This document shows positions 2,418 through 58,443 of a DNA stretch of 58,443 nucleotides, piece after piece. The notes under the pieces are model-generated. The model saw only the letters and a program-made list of their open reading frames with translations. It was not told the DNA's origin and did not search any database. Positions within the stretch are counted from its first letter, which is position 1, and every line of letters starts with the position of its first letter. This DNA comes from a virus. Taxonomy: Duplodnaviria > Caudoviricetes. A program made the position numbers and the translations under genes. The DNA is taken from IMG/VR virus record IMGVR_UViG_3300020151_000200, positions 1 to 58,443 of that record. One strand, written 5' to 3'.

Positions 2418-2551
2418 AAAGAAAAGATGGATCTAAGTCAAGACGTGGACTTTGGGATAATATTAGAGAGAACAAAGGTAGTGGTAAAAAACCAACCAAA
2501 GCAATGCTATCGGAAGCAAAAAAAATAAAAGCTAAAACTAAAAAGAAATAA
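2405..2551 (+). CDS. 48-aa Lys-rich protein (not in ORF track)
   Basis: Manual translation MELLKRKDGSKSRRGLWDNIRENKGSGKKPTKAMLSEAKKIKAKTKKK. Fills the gap between neighbours. Confidence 0.7.
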   Translation: MELLKRKDGSKSRRGLWDNIRENKGSGKKPTKAMLSEAKKIKAKTKKK

Positions 2552-2553
2552 TT

Positions 2554-2865: not shown

Positions 2866-2875
2866 ATAATAAACA

Positions 2876-3184: not shown

Positions 3185-3187
3185 AAA

Positions 3188-4522
3188 ATGCCAATATCTA
3201 ATTCATATCCAAAGGGCGTACCTATTGAGGATCAGGATTTATTTGTAGGAACTAAAGCTACTAATAATAGAACAGTAAATTATACTGCTCAGGGAGTTGC
3301 GGATTACTTGAATATAAATTCAAAGGTTTCTATTGGAGGACAAATGTCATTCCAGTTTGTTACCGTGCCTAACGTAGCTAAGACTATAGCGTTTGATGGT
3401 GGGGGCGGTGACAATACCGCGTTTTCAGCAATAACTAAATTAATTGTTTCGGCTGTTGATGCGTCTACTGCAAATATAACTATATTTTTAAACTATTTAA
3501 ACAATAGTCAAATATTATTATCAGAACAGAATCAACCAAACTTTTTTGGACATTATAAAATAACGGGGTATACGCAAATAGGTACATCGGCATTCTATGA
3601 ATTAGATTTAGAATTTATTGGCGGTAATGGAACTATTTTTGATAAACAGTATTATGATTTAGTCTCATTTGTTTTAAGTACTGAGGTTACTACTCCAACG
3701 CTTCAAGAAGTTACTGATGCAGGAAATATTACTACTAATTCAATAACTGTTGCAGGTATATATTCAGGAAATTTATATTCAGATGGATATAATTTTGGAA
3801 TTAGTGATAATTATGATACTAACTATAATTTATTGTATCAACCTTATAGTGGTTTAGAAATAACTAACACTTCTGATCATGTTTATATTTATCAAGACGC
3901 AAGTATAGGATTCCAAAATTTTGCAGGCGGATATGGTAATTTAAGATCAGATTTTGTAACAGGTTCTTGGTCTTGGCAGTTTCCTGACGCTTCAGGCACT
4001 TTAGCTTTAACTTCTAATGTAGGTACATGGGGAGCATTAAATTATCCTACATGGACTACAGGCACACCATTTGTAAAGATGACTGCTGCAGGAACATTTG
4101 CATTAGACACTACATCATATTATCCTTATCCAACAGGTACAATATCTCAATATATCAGAGGAGATGGTACATTAGCTACATTTCCAAGTGTAGCTACCCC
4201 AACACTTCAACAGGTAACAACAGCAGGTAATACTACTACAGATTCTATATTCCTTCAGAGTGGATTATCGCCTAATTCGGTAATTTTATCAAATGGCTAT
4301 ATTTCTCTTTCCAATAATATTACAAATAGACAAATTACAATATCTACAAGTAATGACATCTCATTTTCAGATGGAGCGGGTAATAGTCTTTACTTAAAAT
4401 CGCCTACTACTATTACAGCTACAAATACTCAAACACTACAAAATGCAAGTGGCACAATAGCTTTACTTTCTGACATACCAACAGTTGGATTTGAACAAAA
4501 TTTTTTATTAATGGGATCGTAA
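3188..4522 (+). CDS. Tail fibre-like protein with duplicated module
   Basis: 444 aa, T/S/G-rich. TPTLQEVTDAGNITT and TPTLQQVTTAGNTTT repeats, xASGTxAL repeats, YIRGDGT fibre motif. Confidence 0.7.
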   Translation: MPISNSYPKGVPIEDQDLFVGTKATNNRTVNYTAQGVADYLNINSKVSIGGQMSFQFVTVPNVAKTIAFDGGGGDNTAFSAITKLIVSAVDASTANITIFLNYLNNSQILLSEQNQPNFFGHYKITGYTQIGTSAFYELDLEFIGGNGTIFDKQYYDLVSFVLSTEVTTPTLQEVTDAGNITTNSITVAGIYSGNLYSDGYNFGISDNYDTNYNLLYQPYSGLEITNTSDHVYIYQDASIGFQNFAGGYGNLRSDFVTGSWSWQFPDASGTLALTSNVGTWGALNYPTWTTGTPFVKMTAAGTFALDTTSYYPYPTGTISQYIRGDGTLATFPSVATPTLQQVTTAGNTTTDSIFLQSGLSPNSVILSNGYISLSNNITNRQITISTSNDISFSDGAGNSLYLKSPTTITATNTQTLQNASGTIALLSDIPTVGFEQNFLLMGS

Positions 4523-9158: not shown

Positions 9159-10703
9159 ATGTCAGACGCTATAGTCAAAAACTTAAGTTTCGGGAAAGAA
9201 GCCAGCGATAAAGTATTTGCTGGAATAGAGAAACTAGCCAAAGCGGTTAGTTCTACATTAGGGGCAAGTGGTAAATGTGTTCTTTTAGAAGATACAACCG
9301 GCAGACCTATAATTACAAAAGATGGTGTAACAGTTGCGGATTCTATTATATTGTTAGATCCTGTAGAAAATATGGGAGCTACATTATTAAAAGAAGCAGC
9401 AAGAAAAACCGTTAGAGAAGCAGGGGATGGAACAACAACAGCAACAGTATTAGCTCACGCTATTTTAAAGAATGCTTACAAAGTTGAAAATCCAAACGAA
9501 AGAAAAATAAAAGAGGGTATAAACTCAGCGGTAGATAAAGTAATAGATTATCTAGAAAAGATAAGTATAACTGTTGATGATAATATGTTGGATCAAATTG
9601 CGACTATATCAACTAATAATGATCCTGAATTAGGCAAGTTAGTTGGAGACGCATTTAGATCTGTTGGAAATACAGGAGTTGTAATGATGGAAACATCATC
9701 TAATCCTGAATGCAGTTTAGAATTGGTTGAAGGTATTCAATGTGATATGGGATTAAAGAACATGCATTTTGTAACTAATCAAAAAAACAAAACCGCCGAA
9801 CTAGATAATCCATTAGTATTATTAGTTGAATCACCAATAGATAACATAAGACAAATACAATCAATATTAGAATATGTTATAAAGAATAACAAATCATTAC
9901 TTATAATTGGGGATATGGAAGCAATGCCATTATCTACATTAGCAATGAATAAGTTAAAAGGTAACATAAAAATAAATGTTATTGATGCTCCTACATTTGG
10001 AGTGAATAGAAAAGAAATATTTGATGATTTAGCATTGCTTACAGGAGCAACCGTAATCAATGAAGATCTTGGCGATGATCTAGATTTAATACAGCCAGAA
10101 TTACTTGGTACTTGCGTTAAAAGTATCACTAGTCAAGAAGAGACAATATTACATATAAGCGAAACTCCTGAGAGAGTATTGGAAATAATAGACGATATTA
10201 AAAAATCTTTATTAGAAAATCCTACGGCGACAAAAGTAATAAAGTTAGAAAAAAGATTAGCAAGATTGACAGGTAGAATTGCTTTAGTTAAAGTCGGGGC
10301 TAATTCAGAGATAGAGTTAAAAGAAAAAGCAGATAGAATTGAAGATGCTATTTGCGCAACCAAGGCAGCGATTAAAGAAGGTATTGTGCCAGGAGGAGGA
10401 ATTGCTTTATTAAATGCTTCTCATAACATAGATACCTTCTCACTTGGTGAAGAAATATTATTAGATTCTATTAGAGCTCCATTTAATACTATATTAGATA
10501 ATGCGGGTATAGAAAATGCTCCTTTAGAAACAATATCAAAAGTAGGGTACGGTTTAAATGTTGTAACAGGTAAAACTGTTAATATGATTGAAGTCGGAAT
10601 AATTGATCCATTACTTGTTACTAAAAGTGCATTAAGAAATGCGGCATCTGTAGCAACAACTATATTATCAACTGATTGTGTAATTAATAATTTACGCGCA
10701 TAA
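9159..10703 (+). CDS. groEL: Phage-encoded chaperonin GroEL (Cpn60)
   Basis: ITKDGVTVA, AGDGTTTATVLA, RIEDAICATKAA, GIVPGGG and GIIDP motifs. No C-terminal GGM tail. Confidence 0.97.
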   Translation: MSDAIVKNLSFGKEASDKVFAGIEKLAKAVSSTLGASGKCVLLEDTTGRPIITKDGVTVADSIILLDPVENMGATLLKEAARKTVREAGDGTTTATVLAHAILKNAYKVENPNERKIKEGINSAVDKVIDYLEKISITVDDNMLDQIATISTNNDPELGKLVGDAFRSVGNTGVVMMETSSNPECSLELVEGIQCDMGLKNMHFVTNQKNKTAELDNPLVLLVESPIDNIRQIQSILEYVIKNNKSLLIIGDMEAMPLSTLAMNKLKGNIKINVIDAPTFGVNRKEIFDDLALLTGATVINEDLGDDLDLIQPELLGTCVKSITSQEETILHISETPERVLEIIDDIKKSLLENPTATKVIKLEKRLARLTGRIALVKVGANSEIELKEKADRIEDAICATKAAIKEGIVPGGGIALLNASHNIDTFSLGEEILLDSIRAPFNTILDNAGIENAPLETISKVGYGLNVVTGKTVNMIEVGIIDPLLVTKSALRNAASVATTILSTDCVINNLRA

Positions 10704-34667: not shown

Positions 34668-37600
34668 ATGTTAGAATACGAATTAAACGGTAAAATATAC
34701 ACAGAAGAAGATTTAATTAAAGCAGCCGGGGGTAAAGATAAACTCCCGGCTTATATTAAAAGTAAAGGTTTCAAACCTGCTTCTAAAAAAACAAAACAAC
34801 CTGCTAAACTTGACGAAAGATTTGGTGAGGATGTTTATAAAAAAACGTTTGGGTTTGAAAATCCTGCAAAAGATCAGTTTTCTGAAATTAATAAAACTAA
34901 GAAGAAAAAACCTGTTGTTAAAAAATGGAATGAGGTAGTTACGTGGGAAGATCTTAAAGCAGAAGAAACTAGTGTAGCCGAAAACCTTCAAAAAAGAGTA
35001 GCTCGGTTTGGATTAACTCCGGAAGAAAAAGTTTTTGGTGTTAATAGAATTACACTTAGAGGGGATAAAAAACAACAATTAGAACATGTTGTGGATCCAA
35101 GTGGTATTTCAACAGGAATGTATGATTTACCAGAGGTTGTTGTAGGAGCAGACGCATCTAAAGAAGAACTTATAGCTAGTGCAAAAATATTAAATGACTA
35201 TATAGGCAAATATGGTAATAAAGACTATATTCAGAAAGTTAAAAAAGAAAATCCAAATTTAGTAAGAGACGCTGAACAAAAAATACAAGCTCCTACTAGG
35301 CCTTGGGAAACAAAAGTAAAAGAATATAACGAAGATTTAATAAGCGAGTTTAAGAACAAAGAGGAGTCTATAAAAAGCCGTTTAAGAGCAAATAGTGGCT
35401 ATATGTCTGCATCACAAAGAAAATATATTGATGCAGTAAAGCCAACTAAAAAAGATTTTGATAGTCCAGAAAAATATAATTTATATGAATATTGGAAAAA
35501 GACAGGTCAAATACAGTTGCCTAGTGAAGTAAAATTAGAAAAGTTTATTAAGGAAAAAAACGATAATTATAGAGTTAGTAAATCAGCGGAATTAATGTCT
35601 GATGCTCCTCAAGAACAACGGACAATGTTGCTCGCCCTAGAATCGGAGCGTGAGGATAAAGCCATAGAAGGAAAAGTAAAACTATCGGTAGAAAGTGATG
35701 AATTAGATAAAGCGGGTAAAGCTCTTAGTGAAAAAATAGCTAAATTCCAAAAAACACCTCCTACTAAACAAGAATATGATGAAATTCAAAAAGAATATTT
35801 TGCATTACAAAATAGATCAAATGCATATAATAAAGAAGCATTAGCGCTTAATAGGGATTTCAATAATATTAAAGCAGTATCAGAAGCTGCTAGTAAAGAT
35901 TACAGTAGATTAAATCAAACAGGTTCACTTTTAAAGCAGACAGCATTAGGAATAGGAGGTGGTATTATGGATATATCTACTACTTTAATGGCAGCTGCAG
36001 ATACAGCAAATCCTTTACCATATAGTATAAAGAAAAACCTGCTTAAAGAAACTTTATTAGATCCTATATATAGTGAACAAAAAGCCGCTAGCAAAGAATT
36101 AGAATCTTACCAACGTGATTTACAGATTAAGGATATAAAGAGCATGAAAGATTTTGGCAGATGGGGAGCTGGGATTTTAACTCAAATGCCTTCGTCTATG
36201 GCTATGGCCGTTACAGGAGAAGCAGCATTGCCCTTATTTTTTCTTAGTGGTTATGGTTCAAAACAATATGAAATTGCTAGTTTGCAGGAATCAGCTCTTA
36301 GTAGATTGCAATATAATGCTGATCAAATTAATAAAGGATTAGTTGCCGCGGAAGATATGGCCGATGTACAAAAACAAATTGCATCGGATAAAAAAACATT
36401 GAATATATCAGAAGGAGCAAAATTAACATCTCAAGTTTTAGCTGGTGCTGCGGAGGTACTATTAGAAAAGTATGGTACATTAGGTATTATAAAACAAACT
36501 GATAATATACTTAGAGCTATACCTCCTCAAGAAATCAAACGCCAGTTAAAAGTTATTGGTAAAGAAATGGGTAAATCTGCCGGTGTTGAATCGTGGACAG
36601 AGGGCCTAACTCAATTAGCTAATAACTTTGGAGATATTCATTTATTAGGACAAGATAAAAACTATTTTGACGGTGTTCCAGATGCAATGGCGGGAGGAGC
36701 ATTTATGGGACCTGGATTTGCGGCAATGGGTGGTGCAGGAACAGTTAGCAATAATATTACAAAAGCAGTTGTTAGTGAGCTTACTTCAAAAGAAGAGTTT
36801 AAAGCAAGAAATAGAAAACTTGATGAAATAAAAAAACTTACTGGATTAGAAGATATTACAGGGTTAACAAAAAAAGACCTTAATAAATTAACATTACAAC
36901 CACCTGTTAAAAAAGCTGTAGAAGAACTTATTGATCAAATAGACGGAGAGGATCTTCGTGTATTAGATAGATTAGGTAAAGATTTCTCTATGGAAGATGC
37001 TAAAAAAGTTGGCGATCTTAATCAAAAATTAAGAAAAATTACAAAAGATTGGAATGAAGCTAGTAAAACAGTTGGAATTGATGATGCGCAACTAAGATCA
37101 TTAAAAGAATATTATCAGAAGCAATACAATGAAGTATTTGCCGCAAGAGAAGCAATGCTTACCGACAAGCAATTAACCGGCAAAAATAAAAAAGAAAATG
37201 CTCAAAAAAGAATTATTTTTGAAGCAACTGCCGGGTATGGCCTATACAATTATAGGTTGACTAGAAAAACTTATCTTGAAAAACTTGCTGGATTTGATAA
37301 ATTATCATCAGAAGAAAAACAGAAATATAATGATTTAGCATTGTCAGAATTAAACCAAGATGCTACTATGGATCAATTATCTAATAAAGAGGTTGATAGC
37401 AAAGCTAGAGAATTATATGCGGGAGAAGAAATTGGTAAACAATTAGATAGGGACATACAGGCTGCTAATGATTTTTCAACAGAATTAGGGTTAAATATAA
37501 AGGTTGAAACAGTAAATAGCGAAAAAGAATTATTAGAAAAATATGATAAAATTATAGATGAAGAGGAATTAAACGATTTGTTAAGTGGAAAAACAAATGG

Positions 37601-40600
37601 GTTTAATATAGATGATAATACATTGGTAATATATAAACCAAATGCTATTAAAAATGGACATACAAGCACTGGATCACATGAGGTATTGCATACTGTATTG
37701 TCTAAAGCATTTAAAAACAATCAAGAGGAGGCAAATAAAAACGGTATAAAATTACTTGAATATTTAAAAACAGCCCAACCATCACTTTATGCAGCGGTAG
37801 AAGAAAGAATGAAAGCTTACACGCCTGATTATGCCGCTTATGGAGAGGAAGTATTTAATGCGCTTTCAGATTCTTTTAGTGATGGGAAAATACCAAATGA
37901 CGATGTATTTACCCAAATATCCAAAGTAATTAATAAAATAACTAAAGGTGCGTTTGGAACATCTTCAACATTTGATATTAAAAATATTAGCACGGATTCC
38001 GGAAAAGCTTTATTTGATACAATAAAAGCATATAGTCAGAAAGCCGGGGCTAAAAAAACTAAGTCCGGTCAAAATATAAGATTTATTTATTCTGATACAG
38101 AAGATAAGGCTGCAGAGGGAGCCCCTGCTACTGGATTTAAAGCTTCAAAAACTAAGGTTGCTGAAGTTCAAAAAAAGATAGATGATTTAGAAGATCAATT
38201 AGATAATGGAGAAATTGATTATGAAGATTATGAAAGTAGACTTAAAATATTTGAGGCGGATTTAGCAAAAGCAAAACTAACTCCTGAAGAAGCTCCAAAA
38301 CCCGAGGTTAAAAAAGTCGAAGTTTCTGAAGAGGAAGCAGATAAAGAAATAATAAAAAACGAAAGATCATCATTATCATCAGACAAAGTACAAAAAATAT
38401 ATGATGAAAAAGGATTAAATGGAGCACAAGACATTATAGATTTATTTAAACCTATTACCAAGAAATTAGTAAACAGAAGAATGGATGCTCCAGGTTTTGA
38501 CAGAGAATTATTAACTGACGAAATAGAAACCGGCACAGGTGGTATTTTAGATTTAATAAGCAAATACAAACCTGAAAGCGGAATACCTTTGGCCGCGTTT
38601 ATTAATAAATATTTACCTGTTAGAGCTATTGCTGCATCTAGGAGAGTATTAGACAAAGACTTTAGCAAGGACGTTACAGAAGAAAAAGGTTTAATAGCTG
38701 AAGAAACTGCATCTGAGACAAAAGAAAAACCAAAATATAAGAATGCATTAGAATCAAATGTTTTTGAGCCAGATGTCTTAAAAACGCTATCTAATAAGAT
38801 TATCTCCGTAACAAGAACATTAAAAAATAGAATTGATGCTCCTATAACCTTAAATAGAACTGTTACTCCATTAATTAGCGAAATTAGAGATGAAGTTGGC
38901 AGGTTATTAGACATTGACGTTAAAACTGCGATGGGGGGTAAAAAAGATGATCAACTTAAAAAATGGTTGTTAAAAAATAAACGTTATGTTTTAGAAAACA
39001 TGACAACCACATGGTTAATGGGTAAAGATGGAGTTGGCGGAATGCCACAAGCAATACAAAAACAAATTGATGGAAAGTGGGTTAGTTATCCAGATTGGGT
39101 TGGCAAAAAAATTGATAGAGAAAAAACAACAACAGATCAAGCAGGTAGAACATCAGGAGCAGAGTTAGTTAGACGTTTACCTAATGTAAATAATAATGTT
39201 TCTAATGAAGTTTATTTAGCACAAGTATTAGAGCCTAGTGGCAATCCGATTAGAGGTAGAAAAGAATCCTTAGCTAAAGCAGTTGCTGAAGAATCAGCAT
39301 TTGATATTATCAATAATGATCTTGAAAATGAGGGGCCTATATTTGAAGCTTTATCAACAAATCAGCAAAGATTAGGGTATGAATTAACTAATGCTTTTGC
39401 TGTTGAAATTGCTAAACAATCTGAAAGAGGTAATATTAAATTCTCTAAAACAAATGTTAATGCTGTAGATAAGATTGGAACTGAATTTTATAATTTTTAT
39501 AAAGATTTAGACACAAATAATAAAGCATTAGTATTTAATTATTTAGATAATAGAGAATTTAAAGGTATTGATGATAATATAAAAAATGAATTAGACGATA
39601 TATTAAATAGGTGGGAAACAGCCTACATTAATAATTCTGATAAAATATTAAATAAAATTAATATTGAAAGAAGAAAAAAATTTAAAGAAGAATATCCAAA
39701 AGTAGAAAGTTTTAATAAATATTTTGAAAAAGAAAAAGAAGATATTAGGGTTTCAAAAACAGCTGCGTTAGGATTATCTAACACGGGATTAAACTTTATA
39801 AAAAATAACCAAGAAGAAATAAGCGAAATACAAAATTATGCTTTTAATAATATAAAAAAAGAGGTAAATAATGCTAAAACAGATAAAGAAAAAACGGAAC
39901 TTGTAGATAATTTCTTAAGAACTTATAGAGCTGTATTTACAGGAGGCGAAAAAGGGTTATGGTTTGTTGGCAGCAATAGCGAATTGTTAAAAAAATTAGA
40001 AAACGAAATTAAAGACTTTAAAGATTTAGGTTATAAAATAAAACAAATTGGCAAGAATGGTATAATTGTTGATAAAAATGGTATTAATCCAACATATGTT
40101 GAGGAACAATCAACAAAAACTACAGATATAAAAGGTATAATAGAAAATGGAATAGATAGTTTAAATAAAAATAGATCTATACAAAGTGAAACTTCATTAA
40201 ATACTATAATGACTTTTTCAGAGGCTATTAAAAATTCTGGTATGTCTCCAAAAGCAAAAGCCCTTGCGATTATACTTATGAGGACTAGCACATATTCTCC
40301 TTTAAGAACATTAGCTAAGGTTGATTCTATAATATTAGATAAAAGTAAAAAGAATACAGATGATTACACTTGGGAGCATGTTATGCCCGTAGATGAACTT
40401 GTTAGAAATATTATGTCTTATGCGTTAGATTTACCTTTCGCAGATAAACCTGTAACAACCAAAGAAAACTTAAAAACTTTATTAGGGGAAAGTAAAATAT
40501 CTCTTTTGCCTAAAAATATTAATAATATATTAAATACTTTGCTTAAAAGTCAAATGCCTTCTAATTGGAAAATGGGAGATAATATATATGAAGCTCGATA

Positions 40601-43600
40601 TTTTAATCAAAAAATATTAGATATATTAAAAACTAATGGTATTGACTTAAGGCCATCTGATTTAACAATACTAAGCGGAGAAAATGGCGGTATTACGGAA
40701 ATTGACTTTGAAGCAAGAAAAAATGCATTAAATATTAGTAATAGTCAAGAAGCAACTATAAAATCTTTAAAACCTTCAAAAACACTAAAAGGTATTTCTG
40801 TTTTTGATTTTGATGATACTGTTGGATTAACGAAAGGTAGTGTGCTATACACAATGCCGGGTGATCAACCAGTTTACCACGGCGCTCCTAAAGGAAAAGA
40901 TGTTACAAAAATCAGTGATAAGGGAGTTAAGTTTTTTGCTACAGATATAAGAGAAGCAAATGAATATGCCAGAATGAATTCTGGTACAACACAGCAATTT
41001 GTTATAAATAATTCTCAAGTTGTTGATGAAGATGTTGCTATAAATAAAATGAAAGAATTGGGTTTAACCCCAAAAAATAATGAATTTGAGATAGATGATG
41101 TTTCTTTTTATGAGTTAATAGACATACGCTTTGAGGAGTCATTAAGCAAAGCGGATATAACAAAATTATTTGACGCTCTAAAAAAAGACAATATAAAAGC
41201 TATAAGTTACAGTGATGGAGCCCAAGTTAGCGGTAGGTTTACAACAAGTATTGCGGTAATTGATACATCTATAATATCTGAGCCTAAAAAATTAAACGCA
41301 GAGGAGTTTGCTAAAAATGGATCTAAACTTTTGGAAGAAGGTGCAGTATTTGATTTTTCTGAATTTAGCAAGGTCGTAGACGGCAAACCTGGGCCTATGG
41401 TTGAAAAAATGAAGAAGATGATTGGTAAATTTGGACCAGATAATTTCTTTATTCTTACGGCTCGTCCTGCTAATGCAGCAGTACCTATACACGAATTTTT
41501 ATCATCAATAGGTATTGATATCCCGTTAGAAAACATAACAGGATTAGGCAATAGTACAGCCCAAGCAAAAGCGGATTGGATGACTGCGAAAGCAGCAGAA
41601 GGATATAATGATTTTTACTTTGCTGACGATGCTCCACAAAATGTAGAAGCCGTTAAAAAAGCTCTAGAGGTTCCTGGTATAACTTCAAAAGTGCAACAAG
41701 CACGTCTTAAGTTTTCTTTAACTTCTAAACAAGATTTAAAATGGAAGCAAGGAGATGAAGATTTATCAACAAAATTTACAGTTGGCAATATAGATTATAG
41801 AATTTCTATGATTGAAACAGCATACATGGAATATGACGACGATGTACAAAAAACATTATTTGATTTAGTAGAAAAAAATGGCCTCGACGAAGAAACAACT
41901 ATAGCCGCTTATGACGGGGAAGCATACAACTTAGAATTTTGGGATAAGAAAAAAGGCAATGGAATAACTGGTTCTGGTAATGCAGCTGAAGTATTTGGAA
42001 TAGTAATAAATGGAGTGGCGGACAAAGTTAAAAAGAAAAATATTGAGGCATTAGTATTTACGGCAAAAGAACCTAGCAGAATTAAGTTATATAATTCAAT
42101 GGCAGAAGTTGTCGCTAATAAATTAGGATGGGGTGCTTATTATAAAGATGGTGTTTATATATTAGCAAAAAAACCTAAAACAATTGGAGCTACAACTGGA
42201 GTAGGAAGCTTAAAACCCGTTCAAGACGTTTTAAAAGTAGTTGACATTAAATCACCTATCCAGCAAAATAAAATTAAGTTTAGTAAAACCATGTCTGATG
42301 ATTTTAATAGAATCATTGAAGAAAATAAAGGAGTAGAAAGTTATAAGGTATTCTCTGATATTACTGCAAGAAGAAGAGGTATAAAGAAAAATAGATTTGA
42401 CTTATACGTTCCACCATCTGCAGCGGACTTTGAATTATTACTTTACAATTTTATGGGTAAAGGAGAGTTAGGTGAAGAACAAAAGAAATTCTTCCAGGAT
42501 GCTTTAATGACTCCATATATAAACGGGGTTGATATGATGGATGCGGTAAGACAATCTATTAAGAGAGAATACAAAGCATTGTTAAAATCGTTTCCTGAAG
42601 TTAAAAAAGAACTTGAAAAGTTAACTCCTAATAAAGACTTTACATATGATCAAGCAATGCGAGTTGCAATATGGAGTCAATATGGTACGGAAATTCCTGG
42701 GTTATCTCAAAGAGACGTAACTTATTTAACTGATCTTATTAATAATGATCCAGAACTTGCTGCATTTAAAGACGGATTAATAGTGATGGGTAGACAAAAA
42801 GATGGGTGGTTACCTCCAGGTACTTTTTGGGACTCTGATACTATTGTTTCTGACCTATATAATATAACAGAAGGATCTGGTAGAAAGAAATTCTTAGCAG
42901 AGTTTATTGAAAACACAGAAAATATTTTTGGCAAATGGGAAGACGGCAGATTAGTTGGTCCTAATATGAATAAAGTAGAAGCTGTTTACGGAACAAACGT
43001 TAGAGAAGCGTTAGAAGATTCTATATACAGAATGATAAACGGTAAGAATAGAAGCTTTGGGCAGGATAAAGAAACAACCGCATGGAGTAGCTGGGTGAAT
43101 GGTTCAACAGGAGCAATCATGTTCTTGAACACTCGTTCTGCTGCATTGCAGATGCTAGGGGCAGTTAACTTTTTAAACTGGAGAGACAACAATCCATTCA
43201 ATGCTGGTAAAGCGTTTTTAAACCAACCACAATACTGGAAAGACTTTGCTCGTATATGGAATTCAGATAAGCTAAAAGAAAGACGTGGGGGATTAAGAGA
43301 AGATGTTGCTTCTGCTGAGATTGCTAATGCCGCAGCTGGAAGTAAAAATAAAGTAGTTGCGGTAACATCGTATTTATTAAAGATTGGATATACGCCAACA
43401 CAATTAGCGGATAGTTTCGCTATTGCTTCTGGAGGTGCTCCTTTCTATAGAAATAGAATTAACTCTTATTTAAAAGAAGGGTTAACAGAGCAAGAGGCAG
43501 AGTCAAAAGCATGGCAAGACTTTTCTAAAGTATCTGATGAAACACAGCAATCAGGCGATCCAAAAGATATATCAAAGCAGCAGTCAAGTAGCGCAGGTAG

Positions 43601-44549
43601 ATTACTATTAGTATTCCAAAACTTTACAATGCAGCAATCCCGTATCGTTAAGAAAGCTGTATTAGATCTTAAAAATGGTAGAGGTGATGCTAAAACTAAT
43701 ATAGCTAAAATAGCTTATTACTTAGCGGTACAGAATATAATGTTCTCTACATTACAACAAGGTTTATTCGCTGTTATGTTTGATGACGATGATGATGAAG
43801 AAAAAAAGAAAAAGAAAAAAACCGATGCAGCTATTGATGTTGCAAATGGAGTACTAGATAGTATACTTAGAGGTACTGGTTTTGTTGGGGGTGTTGCAGC
43901 AACATTAAAGAATACTGTAGTTAAATACCTTGAGGAAAGGGCAAAAAAACAAAAAGCAGAATATGCTAAGGTTGTTCTTGAAGCAGCAAATATGTCTCCC
44001 CCAATTGGATCTAAACTAAGAAAAACATATAGTGCGTTACAACAAACTAAATATGATAAGGACTTAATAGAAGCAAGAGGATGGGGAGTTATGCAAGATG
44101 GTAGAGTTCACTTAGGCCCTATGTACTCTGTAACAGGAAAACTTGTTGAGGTTGGAACTAACTTCCCTATGGACCGATTAGTTAATAAGGTTGAGAATGT
44201 ATCACAAGCCTTTAATTCTGAAAATACTGCTGTGCAAAGACTTGCAACAGGAATGGGTTATTCACCTTGGACAGTTGGTATTGAAGGAACAAAAGGAGAT
44301 ATACTTATAAAAGAAACTGCTAAAGCAAAACGAAAAGAAGAGGGGTTAATTAAAGCTAAACAAACACGAAGAGAAAATGCTGAAAGATTAAAAGATAGTA
44401 TTAGAGGTTTATCAATACCAGAAAGAAAAGCGTACAGACTTAAAGTAGCCTTAGAGAAAAGAGAAAAGAGAAAAGAAAGAGCTTTAGAAAAAAGAGAGGA
44501 AAGACGTAAGAAATTAGAAATGTTCAAAAAGTTAAACGCAAATGAATAG
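34668..44549 (+). CDS. Giant multidomain (polyvalent) virion or ejection protein
   Basis: 3293 aa. HEVLH zincin at 37677, sigma-like segment at about 38430-38650, WEHVMP at about 40370, HAD motifs DFDDT/ILTARP/FADD, nested YHG ART-like domain, helical C-terminus. Confidence 0.85.
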   Translation: MLEYELNGKIYTEEDLIKAAGGKDKLPAYIKSKGFKPASKKTKQPAKLDERFGEDVYKKTFGFENPAKDQFSEINKTKKKKPVVKKWNEVVTWEDLKAEETSVAENLQKRVARFGLTPEEKVFGVNRITLRGDKKQQLEHVVDPSGISTGMYDLPEVVVGADASKEELIASAKILNDYIGKYGNKDYIQKVKKENPNLVRDAEQKIQAPTRPWETKVKEYNEDLISEFKNKEESIKSRLRANSGYMSASQRKYIDAVKPTKKDFDSPEKYNLYEYWKKTGQIQLPSEVKLEKFIKEKNDNYRVSKSAELMSDAPQEQRTMLLALESEREDKAIEGKVKLSVESDELDKAGKALSEKIAKFQKTPPTKQEYDEIQKEYFALQNRSNAYNKEALALNRDFNNIKAVSEAASKDYSRLNQTGSLLKQTALGIGGGIMDISTTLMAAADTANPLPYSIKKNLLKETLLDPIYSEQKAASKELESYQRDLQIKDIKSMKDFGRWGAGILTQMPSSMAMAVTGEAALPLFFLSGYGSKQYEIASLQESALSRLQYNADQINKGLVAAEDMADVQKQIASDKKTLNISEGAKLTSQVLAGAAEVLLEKYGTLGIIKQTDNILRAIPPQEIKRQLKVIGKEMGKSAGVESWTEGLTQLANNFGDIHLLGQDKNYFDGVPDAMAGGAFMGPGFAAMGGAGTVSNNITKAVVSELTSKEEFKARNRKLDEIKKLTGLEDITGLTKKDLNKLTLQPPVKKAVEELIDQIDGEDLRVLDRLGKDFSMEDAKKVGDLNQKLRKITKDWNEASKTVGIDDAQLRSLKEYYQKQYNEVFAAREAMLTDKQLTGKNKKENAQKRIIFEATAGYGLYNYRLTRKTYLEKLAGFDKLSSEEKQKYNDLALSELNQDATMDQLSNKEVDSKARELYAGEEIGKQLDRDIQAANDFSTELGLNIKVETVNSEKELLEKYDKIIDEEELNDLLSGKTNGFNIDDNTLVIYKPNAIKNGHTSTGSHEVLHTVLSKAFKNNQEEANKNGIKLLEYLKTAQPSLYAAVEERMKAYTPDYAAYGEEVFNALSDSFSDGKIPNDDVFTQISKVINKITKGAFGTSSTFDIKNISTDSGKALFDTIKAYSQKAGAKKTKSGQNIRFIYSDTEDKAAEGAPATGFKASKTKVAEVQKKIDDLEDQLDNGEIDYEDYESRLKIFEADLAKAKLTPEEAPKPEVKKVEVSEEEADKEIIKNERSSLSSDKVQKIYDEKGLNGAQDIIDLFKPITKKLVNRRMDAPGFDRELLTDEIETGTGGILDLISKYKPESGIPLAAFINKYLPVRAIAASRRVLDKDFSKDVTEEKGLIAEETASETKEKPKYKNALESNVFEPDVLKTLSNKIISVTRTLKNRIDAPITLNRTVTPLISEIRDEVGRLLDIDVKTAMGGKKDDQLKKWLLKNKRYVLENMTTTWLMGKDGVGGMPQAIQKQIDGKWVSYPDWVGKKIDREKTTTDQAGRTSGAELVRRLPNVNNNVSNEVYLAQVLEPSGNPIRGRKESLAKAVAEESAFDIINNDLENEGPIFEALSTNQQRLGYELTNAFAVEIAKQSERGNIKFSKTNVNAVDKIGTEFYNFYKDLDTNNKALVFNYLDNREFKGIDDNIKNELDDILNRWETAYINNSDKILNKINIERRKKFKEEYPKVESFNKYFEKEKEDIRVSKTAALGLSNTGLNFIKNNQEEISEIQNYAFNNIKKEVNNAKTDKEKTELVDNFLRTYRAVFTGGEKGLWFVGSNSELLKKLENEIKDFKDLGYKIKQIGKNGIIVDKNGINPTYVEEQSTKTTDIKGIIENGIDSLNKNRSIQSETSLNTIMTFSEAIKNSGMSPKAKALAIILMRTSTYSPLRTLAKVDSIILDKSKKNTDDYTWEHVMPVDELVRNIMSYALDLPFADKPVTTKENLKTLLGESKISLLPKNINNILNTLLKSQMPSNWKMGDNIYEARYFNQKILDILKTNGIDLRPSDLTILSGENGGITEIDFEARKNALNISNSQEATIKSLKPSKTLKGISVFDFDDTVGLTKGSVLYTMPGDQPVYHGAPKGKDVTKISDKGVKFFATDIREANEYARMNSGTTQQFVINNSQVVDEDVAINKMKELGLTPKNNEFEIDDVSFYELIDIRFEESLSKADITKLFDALKKDNIKAISYSDGAQVSGRFTTSIAVIDTSIISEPKKLNAEEFAKNGSKLLEEGAVFDFSEFSKVVDGKPGPMVEKMKKMIGKFGPDNFFILTARPANAAVPIHEFLSSIGIDIPLENITGLGNSTAQAKADWMTAKAAEGYNDFYFADDAPQNVEAVKKALEVPGITSKVQQARLKFSLTSKQDLKWKQGDEDLSTKFTVGNIDYRISMIETAYMEYDDDVQKTLFDLVEKNGLDEETTIAAYDGEAYNLEFWDKKKGNGITGSGNAAEVFGIVINGVADKVKKKNIEALVFTAKEPSRIKLYNSMAEVVANKLGWGAYYKDGVYILAKKPKTIGATTGVGSLKPVQDVLKVVDIKSPIQQNKIKFSKTMSDDFNRIIEENKGVESYKVFSDITARRRGIKKNRFDLYVPPSAADFELLLYNFMGKGELGEEQKKFFQDALMTPYINGVDMMDAVRQSIKREYKALLKSFPEVKKELEKLTPNKDFTYDQAMRVAIWSQYGTEIPGLSQRDVTYLTDLINNDPELAAFKDGLIVMGRQKDGWLPPGTFWDSDTIVSDLYNITEGSGRKKFLAEFIENTENIFGKWEDGRLVGPNMNKVEAVYGTNVREALEDSIYRMINGKNRSFGQDKETTAWSSWVNGSTGAIMFLNTRSAALQMLGAVNFLNWRDNNPFNAGKAFLNQPQYWKDFARIWNSDKLKERRGGLREDVASAEIANAAAGSKNKVVAVTSYLLKIGYTPTQLADSFAIASGGAPFYRNRINSYLKEGLTEQEAESKAWQDFSKVSDETQQSGDPKDISKQQSSSAGRLLLVFQNFTMQQSRIVKKAVLDLKNGRGDAKTNIAKIAYYLAVQNIMFSTLQQGLFAVMFDDDDDEEKKKKKKTDAAIDVANGVLDSILRGTGFVGGVAATLKNTVVKYLEERAKKQKAEYAKVVLEAANMSPPIGSKLRKTYSALQQTKYDKDLIEARGWGVMQDGRVHLGPMYSVTGKLVEVGTNFPMDRLVNKVENVSQAFNSENTAVQRLATGMGYSPWTVGIEGTKGDILIKETAKAKRKEEGLIKAKQTRRENAERLKDSIRGLSIPERKAYRLKVALEKREKRKERALEKREERRKKLEMFKKLNANE

Positions 44550-50337: not shown

Positions 50338-52058
50338 GGTAATTTATCATCGCTAATCAGATTAGGATTATGTGGAACAAAACAACCAGAAGATAGATCC
50401 CATTTAAAGTGGCATTCAGCGCCATTCTCACCTAGGTTTTGAAACTTACACTTAAGTACTTTTACTTTAACAGTCTTCTCTTCATAGTTTCTATGAACTA
50501 ATAATCCGTGATAGGATGCATCATACCATTCGCCACCACCTTTAATATTATACATGGTTGGCTCTTCAATGTTACCTTTAGCATCCTTATACATTTTAGT
50601 TGGATGCGCAACAACAATAACCAGTACATCGTATTTCTTAGCAAAGATTTCTATTTGGCTTAAGTATTCTAATGTATAAACATTAACATCACCAGAAGCA
50701 TCTTGTGCTCTTACTTTGTTAAATGGATCTATAACCAAACATTTAATACCTTTACGCTTAACTAGCTCAGCTCCTTTACGTAGTACAGATTCTAACGTAT
50801 AACGCTCCATGTCAATAAAGAAATAATTATCATTAACATGATCCGCAATCTGATTCCACTTATCAGTTTTAATATCTGCTACAGTAGGCATACCTTGCCA
50901 AGTTTTACGCATTAACTTGTGAGCATGCAAATATGTAGGTGTATTCTCAGGTGATGCATATGCAGTCTTCCAACCATACTTTTCATTATATCCAACAATC
51001 ATTTGATCCACAAAATCAGATTTACCAGAAGACGGAATACCGGTAACAGTAATGAACTGACCAGTGTATGTAGAAAAAATACTATCAAAGTTATCCAAAC
51101 CAATTTGGAAACCAGGTTTGAAACCGTTTCTAACAAAGTCTGTAACCTCATCTTCAATGTCTTTAAACGTAGTAACGTTTTCCAACGGCACAGGCTTTGA
51201 TCTTGATATTCTTTGTGATAATGCTTCTTTTCCATATTTAAGTAAATATTCATTAGCGTCTTTACAATCTTCAAATGATGCTAAATAACAAACTTCAGCA
51301 CCTAATCTTCTAACTAATTCTGTTTGTAATGCTTGACCAGCTACATCTGAATCAACTGCAATAATAATCTTTGACTTGTCATCAAAGTAATCAATACAGT
51401 TATCTAAATATTCTAGATTATTAGATCCTAACGTTGCGCCGTTTGGCACTGATATTGCATTTGTGATTCCCGCTTCATGCAATGCGAGCACATCCATTTC
51501 TCCCTCAACAATAATACAATATTCAAAACCCACAATGCTGTTAATATTATAAAAAATCTTTTCAGCCCCTTTGTACAATTTGAAGTTTTTGCGTCCATCT
51601 CTGTATTTAATGTTTATTAATTGATCGCCAATAAAGTAATTGAAATGTATAGCATTTTCAGTTTTGCCGGTTTGAGGCATAAACTCTTTGCCTTCGGTTA
51701 TTTGTAGCTCATGTAAAGTTTCTTTAGAAATACCTCGTGTTTCAAACCATTTCACAATAGGTTCTGATAAAGGATACTCTAACCCAGAATCTAATACTGC
51801 ATCTCTTTCTGGTTTTACATATACTTTTTCGCTTTTGCCTTTTCTTTTATATGTATGTAATTGAAATGTTTTATTACAATTGTGGCAGGTACCAATACCT
51901 CGTTCCCAATCATAAGAAGCACATTTAGCTTTTTCATTCTTAGGTTTTCTATCTGATGAACATATAGGGCATACCCCTTGCGTCTTACCCTCTTCCAATT
52001 TGTATTGGTTAAAGTTATCAATAAGGAAACCATTAATTTCAGTTGTCTCTATAAGCAT
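50325..52058 (-). CDS. Primase-helicase (T7 gp4/Twinkle-like)
   Basis: Zn finger CPIC...CHNC, TOPRIM EGEMD/DSD/KDANE, Walker A GIPSSGKS, LVIDP, VAHP. Confidence 0.93.
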   Translation of the reverse strand: MLIETTEINGFLIDNFNQYKLEEGKTQGVCPICSSDRKPKNEKAKCASYDWERGIGTCHNCNKTFQLHTYKRKGKSEKVYVKPERDAVLDSGLEYPLSEPIVKWFETRGISKETLHELQITEGKEFMPQTGKTENAIHFNYFIGDQLINIKYRDGRKNFKLYKGAEKIFYNINSIVGFEYCIIVEGEMDVLALHEAGITNAISVPNGATLGSNNLEYLDNCIDYFDDKSKIIIAVDSDVAGQALQTELVRRLGAEVCYLASFEDCKDANEYLLKYGKEALSQRISRSKPVPLENVTTFKDIEDEVTDFVRNGFKPGFQIGLDNFDSIFSTYTGQFITVTGIPSSGKSDFVDQMIVGYNEKYGWKTAYASPENTPTYLHAHKLMRKTWQGMPTVADIKTDKWNQIADHVNDNYFFIDMERYTLESVLRKGAELVKRKGIKCLVIDPFNKVRAQDASGDVNVYTLEYLSQIEIFAKKYDVLVIVVAHPTKMYKDAKGNIEEPTMYNIKGGGEWYDASYHGLLVHRNYEEKTVKVKVLKCKFQNLGENGAECHFKWDLSSGCFVPHNPNLISDDKLPWEV

Positions 52059-52089
52059 AGGAATTTGTTAAGGATTATTTGTTACGTAT

Positions 52090-52124
52090 ATATTATCAAT
52101 AAGTCATCGTGTTTTGATTGTAAG
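52090..52124 (-). promoter_or_regulatory. Early or middle promoter motif, copy 1
   Basis: CTTACAATC-AAA-ACACGA-N8-TGATAATAT on the minus strand, upstream of the primase-helicase. Confidence 0.75.
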
Positions 52125-52181
52125 AACGTTCATTATATTTAAACGTTCATTGGCAATGAACACTATAAAATAATGAACACT
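52125..52181. repeat. Symmetric four-unit repeat
   Basis: AACGTTCATT at 52125 and 52142; AATGAACACT at 52155 and 52172. Period 17 bp, with the pairs inverted. Confidence 0.7.
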
Positions 52182-54010: not shown

Positions 54011-54775
54011 TTATAGGTAATCAATGACTTGTGAGGGATCTACCTTGTCAATTAATTTTTGAATTGCTTGCTTTTTTATCTCTGAAATTCTTACATAAGC
54101 ACTTGCCCCTTCGATTCCTAATTTGTCTGCAATATCATTAGCAGAATGTTTATCACAGTCTAATCCGTAGCTTAATCTTAATACTTCAAACTCGCGATTA
54201 TCTAAATGCTTTTTAAGCAAACTAGTTAAGTATAAATTCATTAGATCAACATTGTAAACTTCAGATTGATCTGGAATTTGGTACAACATGTTATCATCGT
54301 CTTCATCGTTAATTTGTTCATCAATGCTTAAGAATATAGAATTAAAAAACATTGCGACTAGTCTATGATCTTTACTGTTATCCTTACGTATTTCATTTAA
54401 CTTATGCTCTGGTATTTTAATACTACCTCTATTAATATCAATTGCACGTCTAATAGAGCCTTTAATTCTTTTTGATAGAAAAGATTTTAGTGTACTTTCT
54501 TTGTGATCGCTTTCTCTAATAGTAGCCCATTCAATTTTATCAACTGCTTGTATAAGACCGATTGATCCGCATTGTATAAGATCTGTAATATCTAATATAC
54601 CGCATGCTTCTGTTGTTGTAGAAAATTTCTTTGCAATGTTTTCTACTAATGGAAGATACCTGCAAATAAGATCATTTCTTAAATAATACTGGAACTCATC
54701 AGACATATTATCTTTATTAACTTGCTTTAGATCTTCTTTATATCGTATATAATTAGGGACGTTGTAACTTTTCAT
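54011..54775 (-). CDS. Phage sigma70-family RNA polymerase sigma factor
   Basis: Region 2: YLPLV.NIAKKF...DLIQ.G.IGLI.AVDK...RIKGSIRRAI. Region 4: L..RE.EVLRLSYGL...IA..LG....RISEIKKQAI.KL. Confidence 0.9.
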   Translation of the reverse strand: MKSYNVPNYIRYKEDLKQVNKDNMSDEFQYYLRNDLICRYLPLVENIAKKFSTTTEACGILDITDLIQCGSIGLIQAVDKIEWATIRESDHKESTLKSFLSKRIKGSIRRAIDINRGSIKIPEHKLNEIRKDNSKDHRLVAMFFNSIFLSIDEQINDEDDDNMLYQIPDQSEVYNVDLMNLYLTSLLKKHLDNREFEVLRLSYGLDCDKHSANDIADKLGIEGASAYVRISEIKKQAIQKLIDKVDPSQVIDYL

Positions 54776-55476: not shown

Positions 55477-55779
55477 CTAGTCCTTATATTTTTTTAATTG
55501 TTCTTTTATTTCATCTATTCTTTTCTGTAATTTAATTAACTCTTCATAATCTTCTTGCTCTACTAATTCTTGTTTCTCAATATTCAATGCCACTAATCGC
55601 TGCGTTAATATATCTTTACCTGATGTAGGTCCTGGTGATTCAAATTTATACCAAGCACCAGAAGTATCATCAGACACCCAGCCTATAGGTAATTCCATAT
55701 TGTCAAGATACTCTTGTTCTTTTTTTACTAACTTTTGAAATATTAATTCCGCTAGTTTTTCAATTTCTTCGTCGCTCAT
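55477..55779 (-). CDS. Hypothetical protein with C-terminal UVR-like coiled coil
   Basis: EKQELVEQEDYEELIKLQKRI pattern. Confidence 0.65.
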   Translation of the reverse strand: MSDEEIEKLAELIFQKLVKKEQEYLDNMELPIGWVSDDTSGAWYKFESPGPTSGKDILTQRLVALNIEKQELVEQEDYEELIKLQKRIDEIKEQLKKYKD

Positions 55780-55798
55780 ATTAATTTGTTTTACATTA

Positions 55799-55833
55799 AT
55801 ATTATCAATTGTTGTTCGTGTTTTGACTGTAAG
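55799..55833 (-). promoter_or_regulatory. Early or middle promoter motif, copy 2
   Basis: CTTACAGTC-AAA-ACACGA-N8-TGATAATAT. Confidence 0.75.
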
Positions 55834-55845
55834 GATAATTCATTG

Positions 55846-57908: not shown

Positions 57909-58382
57909 TTATTTAGGTCTAGTTATTATACTTTCGTTTGCGTTTTTTACATTTACTTTTTCTGCTTCATAATAATTCCAATATGCTTCTACACTATTGC
58001 CGGGAACTTTGTATTGATCAGGCATACATTGAGGCATGGGGGTTGGCTCAACTTTAGTTACATTAGCCGGAGCTTTGCATAATGCACCGCTACATTTTAA
58101 TATAGTTAAATGTTTTTTGCCGTAACGTCTAGTATACTCATTGCCTAATGCAATCATATGGTCGTATAACCATATATAGTTAGACACAGACTCACGTACC
58201 CATATTGCTGAAGGATGATTTTTATGCGTTGCTTTGTAAGGAACATCAGCAACTTCACCATCAGAAATAATATGCGCGGTACATAATAGTTGTGCAGACT
58301 CAAGGATCATTTTTACTACATGCTTATTATACATATACTTAGCCGCTTGATTAGGGTCTTCAGATAAATAAAATATATTCAT
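57909..58382 (-). CDS. Pyrimidine-dimer DNA glycosylase (DenV-like family)
   Basis: MNIFYL..DP...A....KHVVKMILESAQLL.TAH...YK.TH.NHP...W motifs. Confidence 0.8.
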   Translation of the reverse strand: MNIFYLSEDPNQAAKYMYNKHVVKMILESAQLLCTAHIISDGEVADVPYKATHKNHPSAIWVRESVSNYIWLYDHMIALGNEYTRRYGKKHLTILKCSGALCKAPANVTKVEPTPMPQCMPDQYKVPGNSVEAYWNYYEAEKVNVKNANESIITRPK

Positions 58383-58406
58383 AGTTAAATTGTTTTGGTT
58401 ACATTT

Positions 58407-58441
58407 ATATTATCATTATTTGATCGTGTCCAGACTGTAAG
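58407..58441 (-). promoter_or_regulatory. Early or middle promoter motif, copy 3
   Basis: CTTACAGTC-TGG-ACACGA-N8-TGATAATAT, upstream of the DenV-like gene. Confidence 0.75.
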
Positions 58442-58443
58442 CA

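Follow-up and report, generated by a model that had tools for sequence, protein, structure and literature searches.

A sigma-70 region 2-like module within a candidate virion-borne giant protein of an aquatic Flavobacteriia-type podophage

Phages that lack an RNA polymerase of their own must win the host enzyme within the first minutes of infection. Known head starts are the injection of polymerases, as in N4, crAss-like phages and phiKZ, and the injection of modifying enzymes such as T4 Alt. T4 gp55 and other minimal phage sigmas have a region 2-like core and need other parts for promoter use, and the gp55-type sigmas are small free proteins made during infection. Unlike the module described below, gp55 is not a domain of a structural-module giant protein. 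Polyvalent proteins, which occur in phages and conjugative elements and include the N4 virion RNA polymerase, have been proposed to act within the first minutes of infection, jump-starting transcription on entry, and zincin-like processing peptidases have been proposed for them (main text of Iyer et al. 2017, PMC5512222). The word "sigma" has 0 occurrences in the main text of that article, whose supplements might list more domains.

The window, that is, the whole stretch of 58,443 nucleotides that was analyzed, comes from an aquatic podophage of the Flavobacteriia type. Downstream of genes on the same strand for the large terminase, the portal and PHROG "virion structural protein" families lies a giant ORF, laid out as follows.

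34668 to 44549, plus strand: giant ORF of 3293 aa, final gene of the structural (late) module (ORF list and translation)
35694 to 36722, plus strand: N-terminal module, aa 343-685, common to proteins of cultured relatives annotated as structural
37515 to 38084, plus strand: conserved HExxH-bearing region, with the motif at aa 1004-1008 (37677-37691)
38085 to 38378, plus strand: charged low-complexity linker, aa 1140-1237, preceding the sigma-like module (sequence and AF2)
38379 to 38648, plus strand: sigma-70 region 2-like helical module, aa 1238-1327 (hhalign, PDB profile, AF2/Foldseek, Pfam and ESM)
38658 to 38729, plus strand: acidic, variable, disordered linker, aa 1331-1354 (AF2 and family alignments)
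38730 to 39527, plus strand: domain 2, aa 1355-1620, strongly conserved, with helices and strands mixed
42165 to 44417, plus strand: conserved C-terminal region, aa ~2500-3250 (homologue coverage)

At least five separately conserved blocks can be recognized in the giant protein, and the architecture differs among its homologues and syntenic relatives. It unites many unrelated domains in a single very long chain, the mark by which polyvalent proteins are recognized. Like those treated in the main text of Iyer et al. (PMC5512222), it is multi-domain, encoded among virion genes and HExxH-bearing, and it suits their theme of a transcriptional head start on entry; however, no polymerase, ADP-ribosyltransferase or other domain listed there was detected in it by Pfam. 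We regard it as a candidate virion-borne polyvalent protein. The H, E and H of the HExxH motif are almost invariant in the family alignment (A1), and the region may be a zincin-like peptidase, an assignment that we only infer because a Pfam peptidase match is missing.

The sequence-only reading had taken the giant protein for a virion protein, and this is plausible, as it is the product of the last structural-module gene and its aa 343-685 match phi38:1 gp101. Syntenic giant genes encode a 3859-aa protein in MW202828.1, a 3694-aa "structural protein" in Elemovirus (MT497068.1) and gp101 of Cellulophaga phage phi38:1 (KC821614.1), a 1691-aa "structural protein" half the size of the giant protein. 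The Elemovirus protein and gp101 likewise close the structural module, in phages whose terminase and capsid genes are related to those of this phage, and their N-terminal region is homologous to that of the giant protein. By pairwise BLASTP, aa 343-685 matched gp101 aa 196-549 (E 4.7e-14, 24% identity) and aa 581-724 matched residues 571-720 of the Elemovirus protein (E 8e-9, 32% identity); both matches were missing from whole-database tblastn at E <= 1e-3. These two proteins differ from ours in lacking the sigma-like module and domain 2, and neither hmmsearch nor hhalign found the module in the Elemovirus, MW202828.1 or phi38:1 proteins. The phi18:1 gp101 is recorded in virions, according to a GenBank note. 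The position of its gene after the tail genes, synteny and N-terminal homology suggest that the giant protein is likewise carried in the particle. We note that virion presence rests on the annotation of relatives and on weak N-terminal homology.

The conserved C-terminal region is covered by ~220 of the 258 fetched homologues, at ~64% identity, and had neither a Pfam match nor a GenBank phage match by tblastn. Pfam found no family in the whole giant protein or in eight pieces of it, PHROGs returned nothing for the protein, and the two collections gave nothing useful when the whole protein, the eight pieces and 27 full-length homologues were considered together.

A sigma-70 region 2-like domain had been proposed from the sequence at 38430-38651. 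On the plus strand this segment translates without a stop into the 74 residues quoted in that proposal, aa 1255-1328 of the 3293-aa ORF; read on the minus strand, this frame is stop-rich. The segment falls within the sigma-like module. Methods that use a single sequence see no sigma here, whereas every test at the level of the family points to sigma-70 region 2. Pfam gave no Sigma70_r2 match for the segment itself even at E <= 10, and none for any of the 27 full-length homologues at E <= 1. The curated Sigma70_r2 gathering score of 24 bits (PF04542) was unreached by the segment or its homologues, and a six-frame PF04542 search of the record returned nothing besides the canonical sigma gene considered below.

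At the family level, the region 2 reference was an alignment of six E. coli sigma-70-family region 2 sequences. When 80 sliding windows spanning the whole giant protein were scanned with hhalign, the top three all overlapped the segment (scores 29.7, 26.6 and 26.3; best P 4.7e-5), and the highest-scoring window away from it reached 14.2. The family profile A4 aligned to the E. coli region 2 alignment (A5) over 65 columns with P 7.8e-5 and a probability of 61.5%; the hhalign probabilities for sigma region 2 were 61-68% only. This alignment scored 28.0, against 7.4 for the reversed A4 alignment and a maximum of 11.8 (mean 7.1, sd 1.5) for 195 of 200 column shuffles, while the remaining five scores, near 130, were artefacts confined to 6-18 end columns. 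When 177,635 PDB sequences were searched with A4, a sigma-factor fragment, 8b3z_A, came out at rank 1 (E 0.014) in the expected register; the broad alignment A2 retrieved low-complexity coiled-coil matches only, and A4 had no match on the E. coli K-12 chromosome. Sigma70_r2 was found by Pfam in two of 26 cut homologues (20.7 and 17.4 bits, below the cut-off of 24) and was the sole family matched by more than one of them. Among the ESM-Atlas feature neighbours, 25 of the 30 that were named carried Sigma70_r2, with a top score of 0.96.

Structure prediction pointed to the same family. The AF2 model has helices at fragment residues 24-45, 47-55, 65-74, 79-85 and 94-113 (pLDDT 72-85), and in a Foldseek search of the PDB 34 of the top 50 rows were sigma or RNA polymerase-sigma entries. 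The N-terminal domain of SigE (8b3z_C) was matched with probability 0.85, target TM 0.66 and rmsd 2.8 A over 74 columns; no match had E <= 0.001, and the best sigma row had E 0.36. Phage sigma factors recurred in the BFVD top 50, and the sigma rows were gone from the listed PDB rows when domain 2 alone was searched. Similar shapes may arise by convergence in small helical bundles. By routes that are partly independent, five methods (ESM, hhalign, PDB profile, Pfam and Foldseek) reached the same family and register. Judged from the aligned family, the resemblance to sigma-70 region 2 clearly exceeds chance, and the segment is probably a true sigma2 homologue or fold. The proposal of a region 2-like domain thus holds at the family level, as a diverged module resembling regions 2.1-2.3.

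Like sigma2 (Sigma70_r2, PF04542; SigE N-terminal domain, PDB 8b3z), the module has the helical core of regions 2.1-2.3, and the two have in common a K-(F/Y)-(D/N)-P...G..L..(Y/F) signature, placed in the same register by hhalign, by HMMER against the PDB and by Foldseek. It differs from sigma2 in scoring below the Pfam cut-off, in lacking regions 1.2, 3 and 4 and in having lost the -10-reading positions. Its setting differs as well: sigma factors are free proteins of 20-70 kDa, whereas the module occupies aa 1238-1327 within a late protein of 3293 aa.

Residue conservation was counted in 67 non-redundant homologues, with Y430, W433, W434, Q437 and T440 placed by the E. coli sigma-70 numbering. 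The F419 equivalent is aromatic and the F427 equivalent aliphatic or aromatic in 66 of the 67 each, and all 67 have an aromatic residue or His in place of Y430. In place of W433 the homologues have K, G, A, S or N and never the sigma-type residue, only 18 of the 67 have Tyr in place of W434, and the equivalents of Q437 and T440 are mostly hydrophobic, again never of the sigma type. The melting and reading residues for the -10 element in regions 2.3-2.4 are not conserved among these homologues. In the more distant homologues the loop that joins helix 2.1 to helix 2.2 is deleted, so the surface that binds the polymerase may not have been retained.

Domain 2 gave a confident model when folded alone (AF2 pLDDT 84.5, pTM 0.78). 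Its best Foldseek match in the PDB had E 0.34 and probability 0.12, with no sigma or HTH among the listed rows, and it had no Pfam match and no usable ESM-Atlas neighbour. It is, as modeled, a very conserved predicted fold of ~270 aa without a solved relative, with invariant columns N, P, N, T, K, G, W, G, T, G, R and K across 59 sequences. Domain 2 always lies C-terminal to the sigma-like module, and the sigma-like helices have predicted disordered linkers on either side, which supports their being a module: E, K, D and A are abundant at aa 1140-1240, where the first residues modeled by AF2 (aa 1215-1224) have a pLDDT of ~52, and the linker at aa 1331-1354 varies across the family alignments and has a pLDDT <50 (fragment residues 117-140).

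The combination of the sigma-like module with domain 2 recurs in a large family. At E <= 0.001 the family comprises 1152 proteins among 7997 candidates scored, and at the same threshold the combination is kept in 454 cluster representatives (50% identity), almost all of which are 1500-3300 aa long. Of nine short relatives checked (332-677 aa), seven are on contigs of 1.4-5.2 kb, one is on a 47-kb contig and the ninth is without a recorded contig. Searches by tblastn of 50,697 GenBank phage records with aa 1045-1545, with aa 450-950 and with the C-terminal region gave no match. A family of this size without a match in GenBank phages marks an abundant, uncultured phage group.

We favor, tentatively, a reading in which the giant protein is a virion-borne polyvalent protein whose sigma2-like cargo module docks on host RNA polymerase. 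The giant ORF would produce a multi-domain protein that is carried in the virion and probably ejected. Its N-terminal third would be the structural module common to related podophages and the remainder would be cargo, within which the unit at aa ~1238-1620, bounded by disordered linkers, would combine a truncated sigma with domain 2. The truncated sigma would be a helical bundle like regions 2.1-2.3, stripped of regions 3 and 4 and of the residues for -10 reading and melting. This bundle could dock the unit at the sigma2 site (the beta-prime clamp helices) of the host core RNA polymerase, which would bring domain 2 to the polymerase, displace the host sigma, or both. All of this would take place at the very start of infection, ahead of the expression of the phage's own sigma gene. 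Ejection, processing of the linkers, binding to RNA polymerase and the action of domain 2 are presumed steps of this model, and docking of the module taken by itself is possible, a point on which we are more hesitant still. Co-folding of aa 1240-1345, with their alignment, and residues 150-450 of Flavobacterium johnsoniae RpoC gave a median score of 0.31 against a mark of 0.32, which speaks neither for nor against binding.

The first alternative is that the module has no sigma function, its helices being a structural or spacer element of a large virion protein and the sigma2 likeness due to convergence or left over from an ancient capture. This fits the fact that every statistic is sub-threshold against the curated families, that the Foldseek E-values exceed 0.1 and that the functional sigma residues are unconserved; moreover, the giant proteins of Elemovirus, MW202828.1 and phi38:1 serve without the module. 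The agreement of the five methods on family and register speaks against it. So does conservation: over aa 1150-1650 (501 residues searched) identity is 62-100% in the 120 best of the 1152 matches, unlike a spacer, and such high conservation argues against a spacer role. We consider this alternative rather unlikely.

It is quite unlikely in our view that the module is a sigma decoy for host shut-off, one that occupies the sigma2 site of free core enzyme and blocks sigma A without any promoter role, with domain 2 as an unrelated effector. The retention of only the core-binding part of a sigma, with the DNA-reading residues gone, is what a decoy would look like, and delivery with the DNA would allow immediate shut-off, in keeping with the first-minutes proposal for polyvalent proteins in the main text of PMC5512222. 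However, the few molecules in a virion would face thousands of polymerases, making titration hard unless the effect is catalytic, and the phage itself depends on the host core enzyme.

The encoded sigma and a shared promoter-like motif are found in the right arm of the genome.

54011 to 54775, minus strand: canonical sigma-70-family gene of 254 aa (Pfam Sigma70_r2 and Sigma70_r4)
52050-52130, 55760-55840 and 58368-58443, minus strand: regions bearing the shared motif (intergenic k-mer comparison)

The encoded sigma matches Sigma70_r2 (E 2.4e-5, 24.5 bits, cut-off 24) and Sigma70_r4 (E 0.0018), alone matches PF04542 when the record is searched in six frames, and had no tblastn match in GenBank phages. 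Each of the five related viral records searched also has one canonical sigma gene. No RNA polymerase gene was found among the ORFs scanned and, with a single canonical sigma, the phage must use the host core enzyme. The motif, ~45 bp long, was revealed by the intergenic k-mer comparison and missed by a generic repeat search. It heads three right-arm operons, one of which contains the canonical sigma gene. Since that operon is itself headed by the motif, the reading of at least the first operon must fall to a factor distinct from the encoded sigma. A search for the Bacteroidetes-type TTG-N17-21-TAnnTTTG promoter found 13 sites, none in a sensible intergenic position.

These observations bear on the idea, put forward in the sequence-only reading, that a true sigma is injected. 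In the version considered here, the ejected module would steer the host core enzyme to early promoters, domain 2 would read DNA in place of regions 3-4, and the encoded sigma would serve later. In its favor, the motif must at first be read by something else than the encoded sigma, sensibly placed Bacteroidetes-type sites are missing, domain 2 is rich in invariant residues, always follows the module and could bind DNA, and T4 gp55 exemplifies minimal sigmas reduced to region 2. The motif could, however, be read by the host sigma A. Regions 3 and 4 of E. coli gave a best hhalign P of only 0.32-0.40 over aa 901-2100, which agrees with the earlier failure to find a region 4 in the giant protein and makes a self-sufficient promoter-specificity factor the less likely reading; domain 2 has no HTH or sigma neighbour in Foldseek, and the -10 melting and reading residues are lost. 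Of the original idea, the sigma2-like module survives (hhalign, PDB profile and Foldseek); the special likeness to the phage's own sigma that had been read by eye is not supported. That likeness was not significant in pairwise comparisons: BLASTP of aa 1200-1650 against the encoded sigma left the two regions unaligned, with a top HSP elsewhere (E 0.13) and just one 8-residue piece matching there (E 1.2), and when the giant-family profile was compared with the family of the encoded sigma by hhalign, the register of the by-eye alignment was recovered at P 0.056. An injected sigma of this kind is decidedly unlikely, and action of the module as a promoter-specific sigma is more improbable still.

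That the segment is part of a virion RNA polymerase of N4 type (T7-like) or crAss type (two-barrel), as a size and gene position resembling those of the N4 and crAss-like virion polymerase genes and two D..GR strings at aa 1408 and 1490 might suggest, is hardly credible: the pattern scan found no DxDGD, in line with the sequence-only reading, and no NADFDGD or T7-like motif B or C, the only D.D.D string sits in an acidic run, Pfam found no RNA polymerase family in the whole protein or its pieces, and no polymerase appeared among the Foldseek rows for aa 1215-1620, the portion folded. This candidate was rejected on the absence of catalytic motifs in the pattern scan.

In its most far-reaching form, the docking reading would have aquatic Bacteroidota podophages deliver, as part of a giant ejected protein, a sigma2-derived adaptor fused to a new domain acting on DNA or on the polymerase. 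The adaptor would capture the host core where the genome enters and start or drive early transcription from the ~45-bp motif, as a phage-specific promoter, ahead of all phage gene expression; we hold this to be a long shot. If a sigma-derived docking domain is indeed borne by the particle, it would be a different and simpler route to host transcription, and the sigma2 fold would be extended to a new setting. Domain 2 is a target in its own right. If the adaptor reading is true, it would add a third strategy to the injection of RNA polymerases and that of ADP-ribosyltransferases. A stripped-down part of a sigma factor in a probable particle protein hints at a new hold of phages on host transcription at the moment of arrival.

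The segment that the sequence-only reading had singled out as resembling sigma-70 region 2 (window 38430-38651) corresponds to aa 1255-1328 of a giant ORF, with a translation identical to the one first quoted. A 228-aa ORF on the minus strand (38228-38914) lies entirely within the giant gene and overlaps this segment; it is most likely spurious, since the plus-strand frame is conserved at the protein level in hundreds of relatives. The genes are laid out as follows in the IMG/VR virus record (58,443 bp, 33% G+C, completeness estimate 91%).

Gene layout of the record
Up to 44.5 kb, plus strand: genes for a chaperonin, an M15 peptidase, the large terminase, the portal and a capsid-like protein
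Up to 44.5 kb, plus strand: genes of several PHROG "virion structural protein" families
34668-44549, plus strand: giant ORF, 3293 aa, the largest and final gene of the structural block
Right arm, minus strand: genes for ribonucleotide reductase, MazG, thymidylate synthase, primase-helicase, PDDEXK nuclease, ERF recombinase and an HTH protein
54011-54775, right arm, minus strand: sigma-70-family gene, 254 aa (the canonical sigma)

The closest terminase and capsid genes were found in MW202828.1 (an uncultured podovirus), Flavobacterium Elemovirus, Maribacter phage Panino and Cellulophaga phi38:1 and phi40:1. The chaperonin is GroEL-like (9159-10703; Cpn60_TCP1, E 1.3e-56), and MW202828.1 and the Elemovirus phages also carry a chaperonin gene. 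None of the ORFs scanned was recognised as an RNA polymerase gene, and pattern scans of the giant protein were negative for polymerase motifs, as had been noted by eye. The phage relies on the host RNA polymerase and carries its own complete sigma; one sigma gene of this kind was present in each of five related records (5/5).

Judged from the single sequence, the likeness of the segment to sigma is no more than chance. It had no Pfam match, even at E <= 10, and no match in PHROGs; BLASTP did not align it with the phage's own sigma, and PF04542, searched in all six frames of the record, matched the canonical sigma only. Using the record's sequence alone, hhalign gave 19.3-19.6 for windows on the segment versus 18.5 for an unrelated one.

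The giant-protein family comprised 1152 proteins at E <= 0.001 (of the 7997 candidates scored), and 454 cluster representatives (50% identity) were counted at the same threshold; the best 120 of the 1152 matches were 62-100% identical to the query in their best local alignment within aa 1150-1650. The family profile was scanned with hhalign over the entire giant protein in 80 windows of 120 aa against an alignment of region 2 from six E. coli K-12 sigma-70-family proteins. The three windows overlapping the segment ranked first (29.7, 26.6 and 26.3; best P 4.7e-5, probability 68%), the remaining 77 scoring 14.2 at most. In hhalign, an alignment of 26 segments cut from homologues matched the same E. 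coli sequences, with the phage's own sigma added, over 65 columns (P 7.8e-5, probability 61.5%). Its reversed version scored 7.4 and 195 of 200 column shuffles at most 11.8, the other five being a software artefact (scores near 130 over 6-18 columns at the profile end). When all PDB sequences were searched with this alignment by HMMER, four rows appeared at E <= 10, headed by an entry titled "RNA polymerase sigma factor" (8b3z_A, E 0.014), whose alignment falls on the FNP...L..Y signature. Sigma70_r2 was the only Pfam family matched twice among the 26 cut members (20.7 and 17.4 bits; the cut-off is 24), and it is carried by 25 of the 30 ESM-Atlas feature neighbours of aa 1229-1339 (named clusters only; top score 0.96). 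With respect to the phage's own sigma, the register read by eye was recovered, but the likeness was weak (P 0.056, family-level hhalign).

AlphaFold2 was run on aa 1215-1620 with 59 sequences (mean pLDDT 78.6).

Predicted parts of aa 1215-1620
aa ~1221-1327: helical N-subdomain, pLDDT 72-85
aa 1331-1354: disordered stretch, pLDDT < 50
Second domain of the model: pLDDT ~90

In the structural comparison proposed in the sequence-only reading, 34 of the top 50 Foldseek rows in the PDB were sigma factors or holoenzyme entries of RNA polymerase with sigma, the listed chains being taken as sigma chains from their letters and lengths, but no row reached E <= 0.001. The best sigma row was sigma-32 (E 0.36, probability 0.54), and the isolated SigE N-terminal domain (8b3z_C) aligned over 74 columns with probability 0.85, TM 0.66 on target and rmsd 2.8 A. 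The BFVD search also listed named phage sigma factors, at ranks 9, 11, 18, 23, 24, 27, 33 and 35 and all at E > 0.01. The strongly conserved block after the module (domain 2; window 38730-39527, aa 1355-1620), gave a confident model when folded alone as aa 1350-1620 (pLDDT 84.5, pTM 0.78) and had a best PDB row at E 0.34 and probability 0.12 and no sigma among the rows listed, so the sigma rows of the longer model came from the N-subdomain. We consider it likely that aa ~1238-1327 form a sigma2-like module.

After an 80% identity filter, 67 homologues served for counting residue conservation, with E. coli sigma residue numbers mapped through the hhalign alignment. The hydrophobic/aromatic sigma2 core is preserved, with an aromatic residue at the F419 equivalent in 66 homologues, an aliphatic or aromatic one at that of F427 in 66, an aromatic one or His at that of Y430 in all 67, and Gly or Asn at that of G424 in 54. 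None of the 67 has sigma-like residues at the W433, Q437 and T440 equivalents, the W434 equivalent is Tyr in just 18, and the loop joining helices 2.1 and 2.2 is shorter in distant homologues. With the core residues kept and the -10-reading positions not, the module appears to preserve the fold of regions 2.1-2.3 but to lack the machinery for melting and reading the -10 element. Region 4, which could not be found by eye, was not found by hhalign either: aa 901-2100 showed no region 3/4 likeness (P at least 0.32).

A ~45-bp motif (consensus roughly CTTACArTC...ACACGA...TTGATAATATwwAyGTAAC), probably the "35-bp motif" noted earlier, lies upstream of three right-arm operons (52050-52130, 55760-55840 and 58368-58443, minus strand), and its 18-mer core has three copies in the record, at these sites only. 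It looks like a phage-specific promoter. One motif-headed operon includes the canonical sigma gene along with that for the HTH protein, so something other than the encoded sigma would have to read the motif at first. This favours the original proposal that the module is injected and directs the host polymerase to early promoters, the encoded sigma serving later; however, with both region 4 and the -10-reading residues missing, we hold that role to be unlikely. The sigma2-like structure is supported, but an injected sigma is not the best reading of it.

Elsewhere in the giant protein, aa 343-685 match phi38:1 gp101 (1691 aa; 24% identity, pairwise E 4.7e-14), whose "structural protein" annotation derives from its likeness to phi18:1 gp101, and aa 581-724 match an Elemovirus "structural protein" (3694 aa; 32% identity, E 8e-9), both encoded at a genome position equivalent to that of the giant ORF. 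The sigma-like module and domain 2 were found in none of the giant proteins of phi38:1, Elemovirus and MW202828.1.

Other parts of the giant protein
aa 1004-1008 (window 37677-37691): HExxH motif of a conserved block; H, E and H nearly invariant in 56 sequences
aa 1140-1237: charged linker
C-terminal part: conserved block of 750 aa

The HExxH block may be a zincin-like self-processing peptidase. Haloacid-dehalogenase-like strings, FDFDDTVG (40803-40826), FFILTARP (41445-41468) and FADDAPQN (41619-41642), lie at aa 2046, 2260 and 2318; by eye they resemble motifs I, II and IV of that pattern, with ~200 aa inserted after motif I. No Pfam family matched the HExxH region, the charged linker, these strings or the C-terminal block. 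For domain 2, searches of Pfam, ESM-Atlas and the PDB gave no meaningful neighbour. Its invariant positions include K, W, R and a G-R-T-S-G stretch, and the many polar ones among them hint at an active site or one that binds nucleic acid.

With a shared structural N-terminus, exchangeable cargo, an HExxH region and disordered linkers, the giant protein has the polyvalent-protein layout set out by Iyer et al. 2017 (PMC5512222), a paper whose main text does not use the word "sigma". A literature search at listing and abstract level turned up no virion or ejection protein described as carrying a sigma-like domain. In the favoured reading, the module (aa ~1238-1620) would enter together with the phage DNA and might be released by cuts within the linkers on either side of it. 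The sigma2-like bundle of the module would then dock on the sigma2 site of the host core RNA polymerase, which would place domain 2 on the polymerase and could also displace the host sigma. The giant-protein family is unmatched among GenBank phage records (tblastn of three pieces against 50,697 records) and abundant in metagenomes. The sigma2-like fold would serve here as cargo of a putative polyvalent virion protein.
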